From Candidatus Bathyarchaeota archaeon (GTDB lineage Archaea; Thermoproteota; Bathyarchaeia; Bathyarchaeales; Bathycorpusculaceae): 64,000 nucleotides of DNA. Location of the stretch: assembly GCA_963826715.1 (NCBI GenBank), contig CAWGYA010000002.1, forward strand, positions 320,001-384,000. Reading direction: 5' to 3'. Under the pieces are notes generated by a model. That model saw nothing but the letters and a program-made list of their open reading frames with translations, was not told where the DNA came from and ran no database searches. How positions within the stretch are numbered: the first letter of the stretch is position 1; each line of letters opens with the position of its first letter. Positions 7,554-32,832 of this stretch are shown here, in pieces. The position numbers and the translations under genes are program-made.

Positions 7554-7631
7554 GCCCAGGTAGTATAGTTCGGTCCAGTATATGCGGCTGTCGCCCGCAG
7601 GACCCGGGTCCGAATCCCGGCCTGGGCGCCA
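7554..7631 (+). tRNA. tRNA-Asp(GTC)
   Basis: Acceptor GCCCAGG/CCTGGGC, anticodon arm TGCGG-CTGTCGC-CCGCA, encoded CCA; T-loop reads TCCGAAT. Confidence 0.93.
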
Positions 7632-16742: not shown

Positions 16743-16821
16743 TGGCGGGCCCGGTGGGATTTGAACCCACGATCTCCGGCTCCGAAGGCCGACACCTTAA
16801 TCCGTGCTAGGCTACGAGCCC
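16743..16821 (-). tRNA. tRNA-Arg(TCG)
   Basis: Reverse complement GGGCTCG...TCGGC-CTTCGGA-GCCGG...GTGGGTTCAAATCCCAC-CGGGCCC-G-CCA. Confidence 0.95.
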
Positions 16822-18481: not shown

Positions 18482-18900
18482 TTATACATTAGCGAAACAG
18501 CGACTCTTTTTCCACTCAAGCTACATTTTTAATTCCTTGTTAATTCTTGTATTGATTCTTCCATGACTTGAGTGCTCCAAATCTAGTTATTTCCCAACCA
18601 ATTAAGCCGCCCCCAATTATCGGGGGAATTACTTGATAGAATATAGAAGGGCAATTTGGGCTGCGTAGTATACATCTCAACGACAAAATTTAGAAGCGTC
18701 TTCCTGATGCTTATTCCCTGATAATCAGGCAAGACAACTAATCGACTAACCCGATAATACGTCACTTTCATTCTTATGCAGGCTACAGCTATGAAAGTAT
18801 TGGCTCGCTTTGGTAGAAGGTAACGTAACATCGGACTCCTGCGCCTAGTTTGCTGTTTAGACAGTAATACTACCGAAACATGTCCATATGTTCTTGCCGC
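18482..18900 (-). pseudogene. GNAT acetyltransferase remnant
   Basis: YRVSRLVVLPDYQGI acetyl-CoA motif; continues through frameshifts as PFYILSSN..ITRFG.HSSHG..INKEL..VSLMY. Ends approximate. Confidence 0.65.
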
Positions 18901-18983
18901 ACCGATTGATTTTGAGTTTAATGAGTGGCCGAACTCTTTTAACTGAGAATTTGGCGTGTCCAATCAAAATAGTAATTTCTTTT

Positions 18984-21979: not shown

Positions 21980-22200
21980 CTGGCGTAACTTGCATAGAAA
22001 CCGTCAAGAGTTCTTGGCTTCGGTTGCTTTTAATTTCTGTGTTTATTTTTGAATTATCTTTTCCTTTACTTGCATGTCCGCAGCGTGTAATTCGCCAACT
22101 CTTCATGTGCCTCTAATAATTTGAGGGTTACTTGTTAGTTATAGAAGGGCATTTTCGTTTGCGAACTATATAGGTCGGCGATGAAGTTTTCATAAACGTT
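21980..22200 (-). pseudogene. second GNAT-like remnant, paralogous to 18482-18900
   Basis: FIADLYSSQTKMPFY..SNPQIIRG..WRITRCGHASKG..INTEI..TVSMQ aligns by eye to the first remnant. Ends approximate. Confidence 0.55.
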
Positions 22201-22336
22201 TTTACGAGTTGCCTTTGATGTAAAGATGTTATTGGGCTCTATTGAGAGTATAGCGTCTCAACTCTTCAACTTTGCCCAAGCTTTACTGTGCCTTCCCTGA
22301 GTTTAACTCCAACACCTGGAGAATAGACAACAAAAC

Positions 22337-22517
22337 GAGTTAACTCTCAAGACAACACAAAACAAGACAACACATAATTTGTATTGATTCTTAGAAAAAT
22401 AATTATTGGTTTTAGAGGGGTTTGCTGGGGTTCTGGCGTTTTCTTTAGGAGAAAAGAACTCAAATGCAAACACGATGAACTATGACGTTTCACCGTTAAC
22501 CAGAGCCCTCTCAGCCC
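22337..22517. repeat. ~180-bp structured repeat, copy 1
   Basis: Colinear and highly similar to 26351-26535; begins about 70 nt past the stop of the PQQ-propeller gene. Confidence 0.9.
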
Positions 22518-22587
22518 AATTAATAATTCCTTCAATTACTTGTTATTGGTAAACTTAAAAAAGGGGGGATAATTTTTTTGTATTCGC

Positions 22588-25203
22588 CTACTTTTTCCGA
22601 AGAATCAGAACGCCAATTATCGCGATTGCTATTACGATGACAACTACGCCCGCAATTAAAGCAGTCATCAGAGTGTTGGTTGTGGAATCAAAGGTTTGTG
22701 GAGTTTGAGTTGGAGGTTGTGTTGCCGCATAGCTTACCGTTGCGTAAGTTGTTGCCCAAGAACTACCGTATGATTCATCACCGGCAAATGTCGCAGTAAT
22801 CTTGTATTGCCCTGCAATGTCGGGTGTCCATGTGTAGCCAAAGTTTCCCTTCTCATCACTGGTAACTGTTGCGATATGGAAAAAGTTGTTGTTGGGGTCT
22901 ATGACATCTATAGAAACTGGAACGCCTGTTACTGTTACGTTGTGGTAAAAGCCATCGATTGGTCGCTGCATGTGCAGGTACTCCATATAGGCAGACATTG
23001 AGTCTTTCGATACGCACGCGGCACCTATTTGAGCTGGAGATTGATCTAAAACAGTGCCTGAAATTACTGCGCTTTCTCCTACAATGATACCTGTTTGAGG
23101 AGATGCTACGGTTGTTTGACTTTCTCCTTTACCGAATACGTACATGTAGCCATCGTATTTGTTGTCGTAGGTTAAGTATCCATCCGCGACTGCGCCTGCT
23201 GAGCCTCCGCCTGAGATGTCCCAGAGGTATTCGCCGGTTGTTGCGTTAAGTGCCCATAGTCTCCAGCCTCTTGCGAGGGGTTCTGTGGGTGAGTGTTCTC
23301 CGTTCGCATAGTAGAGTACGCCATCTGCGATTTGGGGTGAGTTGCTAAACAGTGTTGAGGAGGGATATGTTGCTGATTCGAAGGGCGCCGTGGGTGTAGA
23401 GAAATTCCAGACTATGTCTCCTGTGTTCCAATCAAGTGCGTAGAAGCCTGCGTATGAAAAGTCATAGATTAAGCCGCCGTATGAAGCTATAGTGTAGGCT
23501 CCGAAGTCTCCCCAGGGATATTCTTCGCCGCCGGGAGTTCCGGGTTTGTTGCTTTGCCATAGTTGCTGTCCTGTTTGTAGATTCCAGCAGTCCCACCATC
23601 CGCCTAAAACGCGTACTGTGACTTTTCCATGGTCAGCGCAGAGTCCTGTGGGGAAGAAGATGTCATCGGTTGTTACGTTCCAAAGGAGTTGGCCAGTTAT
23701 TATGCTTGCTGCCATAAGGTTTTGGCCAAGTGCATGTCCTGCGCCTGCAGGTATTATTGAAGCTGAACTTACAGCAATGTTTGATTCGTAGTCAACTGAG
23801 CCTAAACTGCTGAATGGATATGAAACATTGCTTATAATTCTGGTGCTAAAGTCTGTGCTGGTGCCTGTGGTTGTCCAGTTTATGAGTTGGTACTTACCAC
23901 CACCCATGTTTTGTGTACTTAGAACATAAGGGTCGTTGTATGTTGTTGCTGATGTAACTGGCAGCGAAATGTTGGCTTTTACTGCACCACTCCAAGGATC
24001 GTATTTTATCATCCTTGATGATCCAATATATACCAGCGAAAATGTGCCAGTACCCATGCCTGTCTGGTCGGCACCTGGAACTGAGGTACCGACTTCGTTA
24101 AAGGTTATGAATGTTGGCGGTTGTGTTATGCCTGTTTGTTCCCAATAGATTTCTCCAGTTCTAATGTCGTAACATTGCCATACGCTTGTGGTCTGAATAA
24201 CTGTGTTACCGCTTACAGTAGTAGTCATTGGTTTGCTGATTGTTTGGTATCCTCTGCCTTGGAATATAATGTTTGGTGTGCCTGCATATGTACTTTCACC
24301 GGGTCCTACTGAGCGGTAGCCGAATTGTCCTCCTGCTATACCTGCGAGTGCACCCTGCCTCAACCATGCTATGTGGGAGGTTTTTGGTCCTTGGACGTAT
24401 GGGGTGAATTTGTAGTTGCTTGAATATGCGTTAGTGTCTGCTGGCCAATCAGTTCCGCCCCCTACACCAGTAAAGGGGTAGTGTCCGCCAATAGTCCACC
24501 ATTCGCGGTTTTCTATGGGTATGGGGCGTGTCCAGAAGTCACTTGGAAGAGGTGCTGCTGGCCATGAATAGACTAAGTCTTCCTGTACTGTCAGCGATAC
24601 TTCTTTGCTGGTTGAGCCTTGATACCATGCTGATTCTAGATTTGCTGGTCCACCAAATCCCATGCCACCTGTGTTTGTTCCTGGCGGAAGATCTGCTGTA
24701 GTTGCATAGTATACACCATTATAATACCATCCTGCTGCGAAGTAGTTGCCTGGGAAGTTGAATTTGAATTTGTATGTACCCACTTGATCTACACTGTATT
24801 GTATCCATGCTGTTGAATCGCCTTGATATGAGTTTAAGGGTCCGATAGTTTCAGTTGCGTTGTTTGGTTTTGTGACTGTTATGGTGTATCCTGAAAAGTA
24901 TCTGTTGTATTGTACCGGGGGTTCAAGCCACAAGTTTATGAGCGCTGATTGTCCCTGGCCTAATGGGTTTGGACTGACACTGATGAAAGCGGTTGTTGCG
25001 ATTGTCACATTTGGAGTAATACCTGACGGAGGTGATATAGGCCAAGATGTTAGTTGCGGTGCGCCGATCTGTTCAACTTCTGCATTTGCAGGAAAAGATA
25101 CGATCATTGAGGGAACTAAAGCCATCAGTAAAAAAGCAATTAATATTGTTTTAACTTTAGATGTTCTCATCGGGATATGCCTTCTTATTATTTGTTTTTT
25201 CAC
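22588..25203 (-). CDS. secreted PQQ-like beta-propeller surface protein with C-terminal TM anchor
   Basis: Signal peptide, repeated A(L/I)DxxTGxxxW propeller motifs, WTRPI, Ig-like C-domain, TM plus RKK. Confidence 0.92.
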   Translation of the reverse strand: MKKQIIRRHIPMRTSKVKTILIAFLLMALVPSMIVSFPANAEVEQIGAPQLTSWPISPPSGITPNVTIATTAFISVSPNPLGQGQSALINLWLEPPVQYNRYFSGYTITVTKPNNATETIGPLNSYQGDSTAWIQYSVDQVGTYKFKFNFPGNYFAAGWYYNGVYYATTADLPPGTNTGGMGFGGPANLESAWYQGSTSKEVSLTVQEDLVYSWPAAPLPSDFWTRPIPIENREWWTIGGHYPFTGVGGGTDWPADTNAYSSNYKFTPYVQGPKTSHIAWLRQGALAGIAGGQFGYRSVGPGESTYAGTPNIIFQGRGYQTISKPMTTTVSGNTVIQTTSVWQCYDIRTGEIYWEQTGITQPPTFITFNEVGTSVPGADQTGMGTGTFSLVYIGSSRMIKYDPWSGAVKANISLPVTSATTYNDPYVLSTQNMGGGKYQLINWTTTGTSTDFSTRIISNVSYPFSSLGSVDYESNIAVSSASIIPAGAGHALGQNLMAASIITGQLLWNVTTDDIFFPTGLCADHGKVTVRVLGGWWDCWNLQTGQQLWQSNKPGTPGGEEYPWGDFGAYTIASYGGLIYDFSYAGFYALDWNTGDIVWNFSTPTAPFESATYPSSTLFSNSPQIADGVLYYANGEHSPTEPLARGWRLWALNATTGEYLWDISGGGSAGAVADGYLTYDNKYDGYMYVFGKGESQTTVASPQTGIIVGESAVISGTVLDQSPAQIGAACVSKDSMSAYMEYLHMQRPIDGFYHNVTVTGVPVSIDVIDPNNNFFHIATVTSDEKGNFGYTWTPDIAGQYKITATFAGDESYGSSWATTYATVSYAATQPPTQTPQTFDSTTNTLMTALIAGVVVIVIAIAIIGVLILRKK

Positions 25204-25346
25204 TTTCTTTTCTTGAAAGAAGTATTCTTAAGAATACAATCATTCAAAAACAGAGTTTCTGCATTTTAATTATTTAAAATAGAGCCGTAAGGTGAACTTA
25301 TGACAATAAGTTAATTTTAAATGCATTCCAGAATAATATAACAACT

Positions 25347-26159
25347 ATGCAACAAATCTCTGAAAAAGAGGATGCTCAGATTCTCTCAGAGTTGGGATTA
25401 ACTAATAACCAAATTAAAATTTATTTTGCACTTCTTAAATTAGGCACATCAGCTAAGGCAAGCACGATATGTCAAGTTTCAGGTGTTCCGCGGCAAGATG
25501 TTTATCGAGTGCTACTTGAACTTCAGCAAATAGGTATTGTTGAGAAAATATTAGCAATACCAAGCGAGTTTATTGCTGTTAATCCAAAAAAAGCCGTGCA
25601 GATCCTAATCCAAAATAAAATTCAGCATATTTCTGAGTTAAATGATAAATCAGAAATATTTATTAGAAATGCAACAAAACGCTACACCAATATACCGCCA
25701 TTACAGAATAAAGACAAGTTTACTTTAATTACGGAAAAACAAGCAATAATACAAACAATTAAAGAGACTACTGAAAAAACGAAACATACTTTTTACTGTA
25801 TTGCTCCAAAAAGAGAATTTTTATCCTGCTTAGCTATCTTATCAGAGTCTCTAAGCATGATTAAAAGCAGAGGCGTGATCATAAAATGGGTAACACAAAT
25901 ACCAGACCGAGAAAACACTCAAAAATTTTTTAGTATTTTGCCAGAAAACCGCGATTTTAAGGTAAAATATATCGCTAAAAGACCTACTGTAAAATTTGCC
26001 TTAGCTGACGAGAAAGAAATTGTCCTGGCGGCGTTTGAGGAAGGCAACTTTGCTGAAACGCCGGCTTTAGTTACAAACAGTCCAGCTGTTATATCCTTAG
26101 CAAGAAATTACTTTAATACATGCTGGAAACAAGGAAAAGAATTAAATCATGCTACATAA
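25347..26159 (+). CDS. TrmB-family transcription regulator
   Basis: LGLT...IYFALL...SGVPRQDVYRVL..L...G.VE HTH; C-terminal PLD-like effector domain (D.KE...TNSP...YF..W). Confidence 0.9.
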   Translation: MQQISEKEDAQILSELGLTNNQIKIYFALLKLGTSAKASTICQVSGVPRQDVYRVLLELQQIGIVEKILAIPSEFIAVNPKKAVQILIQNKIQHISELNDKSEIFIRNATKRYTNIPPLQNKDKFTLITEKQAIIQTIKETTEKTKHTFYCIAPKREFLSCLAILSESLSMIKSRGVIIKWVTQIPDRENTQKFFSILPENRDFKVKYIAKRPTVKFALADEKEIVLAAFEEGNFAETPALVTNSPAVISLARNYFNTCWKQGKELNHAT

Positions 26160-26350
26160 CCAAAAAATTGTACTCTTAGTTCCTTCACTTTTTCAGCCTC
26201 GGAAAAGCCTAATAATTCGAGCTTTTACAATTCTAAGCGCCTAATAGTTGCTTCCATGCTTTGCCGCTCCCCTGAAATTGAAGTCTTCCTTCAATCACAA
26301 TATATCCTCATATCTGATATTGAGACTATAAACAGGCTGCGGATTCTAGA

Positions 26351-26535
26351 GAGATAGCTATCTAAGACAACCCAAAACGAGACAACAAATAACTTGTATG
26401 GATTCTAAGAAAAATAATTATTGGTTTTAGAGGGGTTTGCTGAGGCTCTGGCGTTTTTTTTAGGAGAAAGAACTCAAATGCAAACACGATTACTATGGCA
26501 TTTCATCGTAATGCTAATCAGAGCCTTCTCAGCCC
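26351..26535. repeat. ~180-bp structured repeat, copy 2
   Basis: Similar to 22337-22517; begins about 60 nt past the stop of the second PQQ-propeller gene. Confidence 0.9.
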
Positions 26536-26594
26536 CCATTTTTTGCCAATGCATATAACTAAAAAAGGGAAGATAGTTTTGTTGTTTGGTTTGT

Positions 26595-29117
26595 TTATGG
26601 TCGTTTTCGAAGCATCAAAATTATCGCTGCGCCGACTAATACGATCACAACAATAATTGCCGCTATGCCTGGAAGTATGAATGTGTCAGCCATTGATGGT
26701 GCTATTGTTGGTGCTGCTGTGGGTGTTGGTGCTGCTGGATCAACTGCGAAAGAAGTTACAGCATGCGATGGCCAGTATGATTCACTGCCGCCAAAGCTTG
26801 CATATACGGTGTATTGTCCTTCGATGTCTGGTTTCCAGTTGAATGTGAAGAAGCCATCGGAAGTTGTGGTGGTGCCGATTTCTCGATAGTTGCCGTTAGC
26901 ATCAACAACGCTTAGAGTAATGGGGACGCCGATTGTGTCTGTGGGTCTTGCCTGCTGCATATAGAGGTACTCCATCCAGCTGCTCATGCTTTCGTCCGCA
27001 ACTACTGGAACGCCGCTTGGGAATCTCAATGTTAGTTCGCTTTGTTTTGTGCCTGGTGATGTATCGGTTACTGTGCCACGTATTGTAACTGATGAACCTA
27101 AGGTTGCTGAGACGAGGGGTGCTTCGGCTGTGACTGCACTTGTGCCTTTGCCGATGTTGTAGAGGTCTCCATCGTAATTGTTGAATTCAATCAGGTTCCC
27201 ATCTGCGACAACGGTACCTGTTGCCCACGATGATATATTCCAGACTGATGTGCCGTCAGTTGCGTTAATTGCGAAGATTTTTGCTCCACGATAAAGCGGG
27301 TCATTGGGGGTGTGCTCGTTTACTGTTGCAAAGACTACGCCATCAGCGATTGTAACTCCGCCATAGAATGGATAGTGACCATATGCTGTGTCGATGGTGG
27401 TTCCACTATAGAATTCCCACACCGTTTCGCCTGTCTTAATGTCGATTGCGTGGACAACGCCGTCATAGCCTACAGTGAAAATTTTGCCGTATGCAACTTG
27501 TGGGTTTGGTGCGCCTGCGCCTGCAAATGAAGCGCTGTACATACCAAAGGAGTCATTGTATGCTTCTGTTGGACCCCAGATTTTTTCTCCTGTTCGTGCA
27601 TTAAATCCATACCATTGCGTAGCTTCTTGCTTGAACCAAGCAAAGCAGCCCTCAGATACTGGGCTAAAGTTGTATTGTGGTCGAATTGTGTAATCGGTTA
27701 GGTTCATAACCCAAAGGTTCTCGCCTGTTTTTGCATCATAGCCTATAACGGTTCTGACTGGTGGGTTAGCTTCTCTAAAAGCAGCAGCAGTGATTAATAC
27801 ACCGTCGCCAAATGAACTGATTGTCTGACCGGTTATGTTCGGGATTGTTACGTTCCACATTAAGCCGTCAGCCCAATTGTATGTGCGTGTAAGGCTAGAT
27901 GAGAAGGTAAAGCTGTTGGTTGGGTTGGTAGCTTTAGTAGAATTCCAAAGAGTCATCCAATTCGCGTTAGTATTTATTGTGTAGATTAATACGTCACCAG
28001 TTTCTGACATTGCAACTTTAGTAGCAGCTTGGCATCCAGTAACCGTTAGCAACGCATTACCGGTGTAAGCATCATACAATGTAGCGGTACCGCCAAAGCT
28101 GGGGTAATTCCAAAGGTAAGCATCGACCCCGTGAGCATTAATGTTCTCAGTCGCCAGAAGCTGACCAAACCTGATTGTTGTACCATTTTTGAACCAGAGT
28201 TCTTCGCCAGTAGCCAAGTCAACACATGACAAGCCTTGCACCATAGCAGAGGCGGCGAATGTTGGGTGATAATAAAGTCTGCCGTTGAGAACAACTGCGC
28301 TTGTTCCATAGTTAAATTTCGCTTGATAGGATAAGCCTGTGTAGTAGTCTGATTGATTAAAGTTGTCACCTACAACGCCAGCGAAAGACTGTGGAATAGT
28401 CCAGAGAATGTGAGAAGTTTTTGGAGCTGCAGAGTATGGGTTAAAGGTTCCGTCCTCATTGCAACCTGATGCAAACTGCAAGGGTAGACCAAGCCAGTTA
28501 CCACCTAGTACGTGCCATTCATAATTTTGTGCATTGATTGGTCTGGTCCAGTATTCTGTTGGGAGTGGTGCGCCTGGGGTTGAATAAATTGGTTCTTCCT
28601 GCACGGTTATTTTTACTAAGTGACTTACACTGGGTCTATAGTAATCCGTAGTTTGGGGAGCTCCTGCTAATCGTGCACCAGTTAGCCATTCACCGCCATA
28701 GAAGAATTGGAAGGTGTATTCGCCTAATTGGTCAGGTATATAGCTGGTTGCAGTTGAACCGGTCGAATCAGAAGTGAAAGGACCCAAATTTTCAATGTGA
28801 CCATCAGGTCTTGTGACTTGCAATGAAAAGTTGGTGTAGGGGATAGCACGTTCAGTTGTAGTTTGAACAGTTGGCACTGGCGGAGGTTTATCTAGCCACA
28901 TAACTACAACAAGTTTCTGATCAACACCGACGGGATTAGGTCCAACAGAGAGTAATGAATAGGTTTCAATAGATATACTATCAGCTGCGATGACGGTCTG
29001 AGGTAAAGCCAATATTGGAATAGCGATAGATAATGCCAAAATCAATGTGAGAAAGACTGCATAGCAATTTCGAGATTTCTTGGTTGTTTTTATTGTGTTT
29101 AGAGTGTTTTGTGTCAT
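26595..29117 (-). CDS. secreted PQQ-like beta-propeller surface protein with C-terminal TM anchor
   Basis: Same architecture as 22588-25203 (YWTRPI, CVDLATGEELW, AINATDG, WMEYLYMQ, TM plus RKRP). Confidence 0.92.
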   Translation of the reverse strand: MTQNTLNTIKTTKKSRNCYAVFLTLILALSIAIPILALPQTVIAADSISIETYSLLSVGPNPVGVDQKLVVVMWLDKPPPVPTVQTTTERAIPYTNFSLQVTRPDGHIENLGPFTSDSTGSTATSYIPDQLGEYTFQFFYGGEWLTGARLAGAPQTTDYYRPSVSHLVKITVQEEPIYSTPGAPLPTEYWTRPINAQNYEWHVLGGNWLGLPLQFASGCNEDGTFNPYSAAPKTSHILWTIPQSFAGVVGDNFNQSDYYTGLSYQAKFNYGTSAVVLNGRLYYHPTFAASAMVQGLSCVDLATGEELWFKNGTTIRFGQLLATENINAHGVDAYLWNYPSFGGTATLYDAYTGNALLTVTGCQAATKVAMSETGDVLIYTINTNANWMTLWNSTKATNPTNSFTFSSSLTRTYNWADGLMWNVTIPNITGQTISSFGDGVLITAAAFREANPPVRTVIGYDAKTGENLWVMNLTDYTIRPQYNFSPVSEGCFAWFKQEATQWYGFNARTGEKIWGPTEAYNDSFGMYSASFAGAGAPNPQVAYGKIFTVGYDGVVHAIDIKTGETVWEFYSGTTIDTAYGHYPFYGGVTIADGVVFATVNEHTPNDPLYRGAKIFAINATDGTSVWNISSWATGTVVADGNLIEFNNYDGDLYNIGKGTSAVTAEAPLVSATLGSSVTIRGTVTDTSPGTKQSELTLRFPSGVPVVADESMSSWMEYLYMQQARPTDTIGVPITLSVVDANGNYREIGTTTTSDGFFTFNWKPDIEGQYTVYASFGGSESYWPSHAVTSFAVDPAAPTPTAAPTIAPSMADTFILPGIAAIIVVIVLVGAAIILMLRKRP

Positions 29118-29529
29118 TTTATTTTTTTCCTTTATTTTGTAATTAGCAGTTACGCTATCAATCGCTAATAAGACTCACGAACAATTTGTATTGACAAAAA
29201 AATTAAAAAAATGAAAGAAAACAAATTAATTATTGCTGTATTTTTACTTCATTCATCATGAAGTTATATTAATTCATGAAGATAGCAGTTCAACATCAAG
29301 TTTATTCTTTCTGGGATGACTTTAACTATCTTCTACAATAATCAAATCGAATTTTCTACACCCCATAAAAAGCAGGTGACGATATATCAAAATAGAAAAC
29401 TAAAATCTTTAACCATTGGCTTTGTTTAGAGAAGTATCAACAAATACGTATATTACAAAAAATTTTCGCTTAGGAACAAACGATAAAGGGAAAAGAAAAT
29501 AAGGCGAGACTGAAAAAGGTGTAGATGAA

Positions 29530-32754: not shown

Positions 32755-32832
32755 GGGCCGGTAGCTCAGCACGGCTGGAGCGTTCGACTGATAATCGAAA
32801 GGTCGGCAGTTCAAATCCGCCTCGGCCCACCA
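32755..32832 (+). tRNA. tRNA-Ile(GAT)
   Basis: GGGCCGG/TCGGCCC acceptor, TTCGA-CTGATAA-TCGAA anticodon arm, encoded CCA; one A-C mismatch in the T stem. Confidence 0.95.

Follow-up and report, generated by a model that had tools for sequence, protein, structure and literature searches.

Our study reports on a structured element that lies beyond the 3′ ends of two surface-protein genes in a 64,000-nucleotide (nt) stretch of the genome of a Candidatus Bathyarchaeota archaeon (contig CAWGYA010000002.1, positions 320,001 to 384,000; the whole of this stretch is called the window). Both genes encode PQQ-propeller proteins with immunoglobulin (Ig)-like domains and a C-terminal membrane anchor, and both stand on the window minus strand, so that the two copies of the element, c1 and c2, are 3′ of their genes (Table 1). 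The element is real, widespread and strongly structured, and its anatomy points to the excision of an antisense cargo at a bulge-helix-bulge (BHB) stem, the structure at which the tRNA-splicing enzyme EndA cuts its substrates. The proposed targets of this cargo are the translation starts of the same surface-protein family.

A first-pass annotation of this DNA had described two conserved copies of ~180 bp (22337-22517 and 26351-26535), much more alike than the genes that they follow. Both are found at these positions; c1 and c2 share 92% identity over a core of 106 nt and 86% over 181 nt, while the products of the adjoining genes 1 and 2 share 28% amino-acid identity only. Both copies also have the features to which that annotation drew attention, namely a closing stem, an inner hairpin and an AGGAG...ATG, and from the edge of the stem outward the gene-side DNA of the two loci is unalignable. 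The ~180-bp unit itself is composite: the right ~105 bp make up the structured core, whereas the left ~80 bp are the end of an unrelated 2.8-kb repeat. The boundary palindrome GAGTTAACTC and the AGACAAC repeats, previously counted as parts of the element, belong to this repeat and are missing at seven of the ten copies in the genome, and the supposedly invariant AGAAAAATAATTATTGGTTTTAGAG is common to c1 and c2 only, and in part to c3. Besides several fragments, the genome contains at least three long copies of this repeat (C4:8862-11633, C8:470256-473024 and C2:410181-412873), and the window holds a deleted remnant at ~22028-22373 in which both ends are joined; the repeat loci gave no Rfam match. 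A further match to the repeat family occurs at window 18713-18931, and its open reading frames (ORFs) encode an ABC-type ATPase, a GNAT acetyltransferase and two other products with no Pfam match.

Two features had been overlooked: the stem is a 3-nt/4-bp/3-nt BHB, and the AGGAG...ATG...ACTATGG interior copies the 5′ end of the surface genes themselves. Read on the gene-sense strand, the ends of the element are GG-GCUG-AGA-AGGCUCUGG ... CCAGAGCCU-CAGC-AAA-CC, which fold into an outer helix, a central helix of 4 bp, a 3-nt bulge on each strand and an inner helix of 9 bp. All 100 distinct copies compared, which come from ~40 genomes, have the 3-nt/4-bp/3-nt spacing; in them the first bulge is AGA (63 copies), AGU (23), AAA (13) or AUA (1) and the second is AAA in 96. 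Pairing reaches 98.8% in the central helix and 95.1% in the inner helix of these copies. Overall, 93.0% of cells are paired. The figure for shuffles is 87.2%, with none out of 500 as high as the observed one, and that for partners slid against each other is 20-54%. Two-sided changes occur at 14 of the 17 pairs; a set of 39 sequences gave a similar result. The outer helix has at least 2 bp in 90 of the 100 copies (median 3 bp), and in the genome G052 it extends to 8 bp with compensatory changes. RNAalifold placed the stem in another register, with a 2x2 internal loop, which we rejected because copies c7 (ACUG/CAGU) and c9 (GUUG/CAAC) compensate solely in the BHB register.

The genome itself provides substrates with which this stem can be compared. 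The BHB of a tRNA intron (C2:400566-400689) reads GA-CUCA-AGA-UC / GA-UGGG-AAA-UC, with the same bulge sequences as the element, and the 16S processing stem reads UCC-CUCC-AAA-UCC / GGA-GGAG-CAA-GGA. Each of these has its bulge 3′ of the central-helix strand on both sides, an arrangement with which the element agrees on the gene-sense strand only; its window plus strand is the mirror image of that handedness. The genome also has two genes with an EndA domain (tRNA_int_endo; C2:176528-176785 and C2:207049-207303), whose frames are 184 and 185 aa long, and a single gene for RtcB. The features of a BHB substrate are present together: 3/4/3 bulges, the handedness on the gene-sense strand, flanking helices, and genes for the enzyme and the ligase. 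The cut is predicted to fall behind the second bulge base on either strand, since this gives the tRNA at C2:400566-400689 an anticodon loop of seven bases. The predicted excised RNA is then 88 nt long for c1 (window 22509-22422), 91 nt for c2 (26527-26437), and 75-109 nt across the family, with a median of 89.

Two observations on the tRNA introns of this genome (G000) may be added. ARAGORN assigns the gene at G000:C2:400566-400689 to Ser(CGA) with an intron; the BHB and the seven-base loop better fit the anticodon CAA (Leu), with G37 and a canonical 37/38 intron. The gene for tRNA-Trp (G000:C2:265292-265467) has an 84-nt intron that holds GGGTTTGCTGA, an 11-nt piece of the plus strand of the element that complements the gene-sense RNA at its 3′ end; the intron was not matched in the profile search, and the likeness may be due to chance.

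The two copies first described are part of a much larger set, with ten in this genome, hundreds in its relatives and about 360 altogether. A profile search of the genome returned ten copies at E <=5e-5 (next match, E 0.015), and a covariance model built from these recovered the same ten (next match, E 0.13). All ten lie just beyond the stop of a same-strand surface gene of one family, which has 18 close paralogs in the genome, eight of them with no element. Matches were obtained in 31 of 61 genomes of relatives. An even sample of the order had 40 positive genomes out of 151, with 1-25 copies each, and these fall into the families f1 (20/35), f7 (18/35) and f6 (1/25), with no match in the nine remaining families; elsewhere in the class, sampled outside this order, there were two single weak matches only. 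At 35 of 39 examined loci the element follows a same-strand, C-terminally anchored PQQ-propeller surface gene, just past a T-run, at a distance from the stop of 39-72 nt in 33 loci and 207 nt in one, with one copy behind a frameshifted gene. Its orientation relative to the gene is identical in all 35, and the inverted state was not seen; the other four loci have no such gene upstream. The complete genome G052 has the element at 14 of its 15 paralogs. The covarying stem, the number of copies and this placement support the earlier suggestion of a conserved structured RNA tied to PQQ-propeller surface genes: a mere pair of copies lacking covariation, a match to Rfam or to a miniature inverted-repeat transposable element (MITE), and random placement were each looked for, and none was found. 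The Rfam search returned no match at the element, either at gathering scores or with E up to 10, and the position of 35 of 39 loci behind one family in one orientation, with interiors that vary while the ends are kept, does not fit a MITE or other small transposon.

Five congeneric species gave no covariance-model match, though they keep from 7 to ~40 protein matches. At the six loci read in those species, anchor and T-run close the gene as they do here, and the DNA beyond has nothing element-like. Since the family and its terminator persist without the element, it is an add-on rather than a part of the gene.

Several genomes carry two or three elements head to tail, mostly 25-40 nt and up to ~570 nt apart (L067 650-781 and 917-1020; G013:C3:47909-48819; G093:C15:7269-7538; G062:C8:5025-5282; G108:C37:12604-12863; G074:C1:4351-4631); those of L067 sit behind a gene outside the surface family. 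A lone 5′ half of the element, GGCTGAGAGGGCTCTGG, with no 3′ partner nearby, is found at G000:C7:269270-269286 (+) and is probably a decayed copy.

The conserved blocks of the interior, written on the plus strand, are AGGAGAAAAGAA, AAATGCAAAC and ACTATGGC. Two paralogs in the genome (C8:122569-125139 and C8:125724-128108) begin TTTAGGAAATAAGAA-AAATGCAAACACGA...ACTATGGCT, with the protein sequence MQTRKNKTMAI, and 27 of 32 aligned columns of the element are identical, in antisense, to their ribosome-binding site, ATG and codons 2-4; the 8-mer ACTATGGC comes further along in the same two genes. Within the interior, conservation is highest in the blocks complementary to ribosome-binding site and start codon. 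The 18 paralog starts outscore 1186 control ORF starts in alignment to the element (Mann-Whitney p 2.4e-5), with five of the 18 above the 99th percentile of the controls and the top two above the control maximum. G052 belongs to another family of the order, and its genes start GAAGGAATGAAAAAATGAAAAAA...GCTACTATCAC; the G052 elements carry the complement of this start, and one of them matches the signal-peptide codons of a gene in G052 exactly over 17 nt. The mean best score of elements from the genome G003 is 37.1 on G003 starts and 21.9 on G052 starts, and that of G052 elements is 38.8 on G052 starts and 27.1 on G003 starts, with same-sense controls at 20-26. The BHB frame is common to the lineages, and the putative cargo follows the local gene starts, in step between two genera. 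Targeting of the gene next to each element was rejected for G052, where own-gene scores are not the highest; the elements look like the antisense of a family consensus.

Our comparison of the stem and the interior suggests a model for the element, which we hold with about equal measures of belief and doubt: it would be the source of an EndA-excised RNA of ~75-109 nt, probably circularised, that acts on the translation starts of the family. A gene-sense transcript, made when transcription continues past the T6 run or started at an undetected promoter, would fold into the BHB, be cut by EndA after the second base of each bulge, and be joined at its ends by RtcB to give a stable and probably circular RNA (88 nt for c1, 91 nt for c2). 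In such a circle, a pyrimidine tract and an anti-start block would be exposed beside a hairpin whose loop offers a third complementary block. We propose that this RNA base-pairs around the ribosome-binding site and start of mRNAs of the family, which would then be translated less or be less stable, and that the outcome is feedback across the whole surface-protein family; as a variant, the unspliced element in the 3′ untranslated region (UTR) might silence its own mRNA until it is removed. There is an established route from a BHB through EndA and a ligase to a circular RNA, which is taken by tRNA introns, by rRNA precursors and by one intron of a 5′ UTR (PMC7714728, PMC12558985). A bolder form of the model, in which each expressed surface gene yields a 3′-end circle that masks the ribosome-binding sites of its paralogs, giving family feedback or mutual exclusion among up to ~25 variable surface proteins and representing the first class of regulatory RNA with BHB-dependent biogenesis, is tentative, and we regard it as rather doubtful.

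On the gene-sense strand, the stem is preceded at a distance of ~5-25 nt by a conserved GCAUUGG-(A/G)-rich leader, often GGAGAAAAG (for example at window 26543-26556). This leader is complementary to the pyrimidine tract of the element, and an alternative pairing between the two could rival the BHB or conceal the antisense block.

Several observations weigh against an excised antisense RNA. A search for RNA runs that cover window 22000-29400 returned none. T-runs are a signal of termination in archaea, and a run of at least five T within 25 nt downstream is found in 48 of 99 copies on the opposite strand and in 16 of 99 on the gene-sense strand. A terminator-like T-run also separates the gene from the element, and no clear TATA-like box, judged by an archaeal consensus, is present on either side of it; with the T-run in between and no such box, a gene-sense transcript has no evident source. 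The 15 inner pairs of the 100 copies contain 39 G-U pairs, 30 A-C cells (G-U on the plus strand) and 28 other mismatches, counts that are close to the expectation for unselected mismatches and pick neither strand; the G-U compatibility from which the first-pass annotation had favoured the plus strand holds for c1 and c2 and is lost across the distinct copies. The folding energy of the whole element is alike for the two strands (p 0.25). With respect to the targets, the predicted duplex energies for the 5′ ends of paralogs and for 120 control genes have medians of -25.2 and -25.1 kcal/mol (p 0.37), only ~5 of the 18 paralogs in this genome match well, and the best match of the G052 elements is not to their own gene. 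Finally, the element is dispensable, since related species hold the gene family without it. We weighed the invariant 3/4/3 geometry, with the handedness of the native substrates, more heavily than these contrary points, and the strand is probably gene-sense, the opposite of that chosen in the first-pass annotation.

The opposite-strand T-runs downstream of the element would serve as terminators of a plus-strand small RNA of ~95-105 nt, convergent with the surface gene, that has a terminal stem and an interior mimicking the 5′ leader, ribosome-binding site and start of an mRNA; such an RNA could act as a decoy, either of ribosomes or of a regulator that binds the leader, or could contain a tiny ORF. 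The G-U pairs of c1-c4 fit this strand, the 30 A-C cells of the gene-sense strand become G-U on it, an AGGAG with a downstream ATG is found in most copies, and the lineage-specific match to gene 5′ ends suits a mimic as well as an antisense RNA. The proposal is nevertheless unlikely in our estimation: a canonical BHB exists on the gene-sense strand only, and on the plus strand the bulges stand 5′ of the central-helix strands, in mirror image to every EndA substrate checked in the genome, which leaves the exact 3/4/3 spacing of 100 of 100 copies without an explanation. Moreover, the ORF that follows the ATG varies (MQTR*, MQTMAI*, MQTQNSLWL* or a 26-aa read-through), the ATG is missing in ~7 of 39 copies, and a promoter-like box was not found upstream. 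The BHB evidence is shared by a less ambitious reading, in which the element is an intron of the 3′ UTR of the surface gene whose sole role is its own removal or the processing of the mRNA 3′ end, and the likeness to gene starts is a relic of its origin that takes no part in regulatory pairing. The duplex energies, which show no enrichment at paralog 5′ ends, the restriction of good matches to a subset of paralogs, and the dispensability of the element in related species all sit comfortably with such an inert intron. We still judge it improbable, as the top-conserved blocks are exactly those that complement the ribosome-binding site and start codon and these blocks change with the genes between genera, for which an unselected relic would need repeated re-copying.

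A role at the level of DNA appears about as improbable. The inverted copy of a gene 5′ end within an imperfect palindrome would here be a substrate for recombination (inversion, gene conversion or cassette exchange) that switches surface genes, and the RNA-like fold a by-product. Mismatches with no clear G-U preference on either strand are expected for paired DNA; the 80-92% likeness of c1-c4 beside genes at 28% identity suggests copying between loci; the onset of similarity at the stem is sharp; tandem duplicates occur in several genomes; and the interior follows the 5′ ends of the genes in its own lineage, as it would under gene conversion. All 35 gene-linked loci have the same fixed orientation, however, and no solo half-sites are found at gene 5′ ends in the genome, with C7:269270 as the one stray. 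The interiors carry lineage-wide deletions relative to the genes, which create the hairpin and indicate that the interior is not a fresh copy, while the exact BHB geometry has no known role in DNA and core sites of the attC type are not visible in the sequence. The cassette or mobilisation site put forward in the first-pass annotation is not supported: the orientation is fixed, half-sites are lacking at gene 5′ ends in this genome, and the element-free relatives keep both the family and the terminator. That annotation was right that canonical attC ends are lacking: the ends read GGGCUGAG...CAGCAAACCC, with neither RYYYAAC nor GTTRRRY.

Other identities were considered and rejected. A C/D box RNA was ruled out, as CUGA occurs only within GCUGAGA, there is no conserved RUGAUGA and Rfam gave no match; a K-turn and an H/ACA RNA were rejected by eye, their defining boxes being absent. 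A small protein was rejected because the ORFs on both strands differ in frame and length among copies, and a translated circle because only 18 of the 100 predicted circles have a stop-free frame.

The kinds of component that the model combines, BHB introns and antisense RNAs, are already known. Antisense small RNAs that mask ribosome-binding sites occur in bacteria and archaea. The element resembles them in a pyrimidine-rich stretch complementary to the Shine-Dalgarno sequence and start, with an extra complementary block in a hairpin loop, and differs in its predicted release by a tRNA-splicing enzyme, its probably circular form and the placement of a copy behind genes of the target family. 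The guide RNA of the tRNA-Trp intron is a small RNA that is excised at a BHB, is found as a circle and acts by base pairing. The proposed release of a functional RNA through BHB excision is common to this guide RNA and the element, whereas the element lies outside a tRNA, has no conserved C box or Rfam match, and would act on an mRNA start rather than a methylation site. A tRNA-Trp intron that encodes a C/D box guide RNA is mentioned in PMC12558985. The 16S/23S processing stems likewise bring together a leader and a trailer in a helix with a BHB from which the excised part is circularised, and the 16S stem has the same handedness here; the predicted product of the element is a mere ~90 nt, unrelated to rRNA, and its outer helix is short, with the median given above.

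As for EndA substrates beyond tRNA and rRNA, those known according to PMC7714728 are two single introns: one of 46 nt in the 5′ UTR of Haloferax volcanii HVO_1309, and one in the cbf5 mRNA of Crenarchaeota. Like the element, these are short BHB-flanked RNAs in or beside an mRNA, with cutting by EndA and a circle as the expected outcome. Each of them exists as a single copy, in a 5′ UTR or within coding sequence, whereas the element has up to 25 copies per genome, lies beyond the stop and T-run of one family and has an interior antisense to the translation starts of that family. An integron attC site also shares with the element an imperfect palindrome with unpaired bases, a variable centre and a position at the 3′ end of arrayed genes; the bulges of the element are of 3 nt and 4 bp apart, RYYYAAC / GTTRRRY ends are not visible, and unlike integron cassettes the surface genes are 2.6 kb long, are interleaved with opposite-strand regulator genes and are also found without the element. 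In the open full-text literature that was searched, we found no description of a BHB-framed antisense element, or of such an RNA in Bathyarchaeia. If the model is correct, hundreds of BHB-framed modules with a cargo antisense to the starts of one family would widen the role of EndA from RNA maturation to gene regulation, and would offer a first way into the control that uncultivated Bathyarchaeia exert over a large and fast-evolving family of surface proteins. They would also be a natural counterpart of the engineered BHB-based systems for the expression of circular RNA that are now under construction (a 2026 preprint).

Table 1. Features of the two element loci in window coordinates. Coordinates of the element are read on the gene-sense strand (window minus strand); c1 and c2 are covariance-model hits.
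Feature	Position	Strand	Basis
Element copy c1	22413..22523	-	covariance model, E 1.6e-18
c1 outer helix GG (22516-22517) and 5′ strand GCUG of central 4-bp helix (22512-22515)	22512..22517	-	
c1 first 3-nt bulge AGA; predicted cut after base 2, 5′ end of excised RNA = 22509	22509..22511	-	cut position inferred from the tRNA intron of the genome
c1 inner 9-bp helix h', 5′ strand	22500..22508	-	
c1 interior: variable hairpin, then complement of AAATGCAAAC (22462-22471; start-codon region)	22437..22499	-	
c1 interior, last block: complement of AGGAGAAAAGAA (ribosome-binding site)	22447-22458	-	
c1 helix h', 3′ strand	22428..22436	-	
c1 central helix CAGC (22424-22427), second bulge AAA (22421-22423), outer helix CC (22419-22420)	22419..22427	-	
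c1 predicted 3′ end of excised RNA, within second bulge	22422	-	
Element copy c2	26428..26541	-	covariance model, E 1.7e-19
c2 predicted excised RNA, 91 nt	26437..26527	-	
c2 bulges	26527-26529 / 26436-26438	-	
c2 central helix	26530-26533 / 26439-26442	-	
c2 helix h'	26518-26526 / 26443-26451	-	
c2 interior complements of AGGAGAAAGAA (26462-26472), AAATGCAAAC (26476-26485) and ACTATGGC (26492-26499)	26462..26499	-	
T6 run between gene 1 stop and c1, likely gene 1 terminator	22557..22562	-	
T6 run between gene 2 stop and c2	26561..26566	-	
Surface-protein gene 1: 871 aa, PQQ_2 propeller, Ig-like domains, C-terminal membrane anchor ...LRKK	22588..25203	-	
Surface-protein gene 2: 840 aa, PQQ_2 propeller, Ig-like domains, C-terminal membrane anchor ...LRKRP	26595..29117	-	
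Terminus of 2.8-kb repeat (left part), ~110 nt, three AGACAAC and GAGTTAACTC palindrome, outside the RNA element	22264..22373	.	repeat-family comparison
Shorter remnant of 2.8-kb repeat terminus, beside c2	~26364-26395	.	repeat-family comparison

A gene for a TrmB-family regulator of ~270 aa lies at window 25347-26159 (+), with others at G000:C8:31038-31856 and C4:19543-20343. Genes of this kind adjoin the 5′ side of several surface genes, on the opposite strand in two of three cases, and the recurring unit may be regulator, surface gene and element. The window also holds three ordinary tRNA genes, at 7554-7628, 16746-16821 and 32755-32829.

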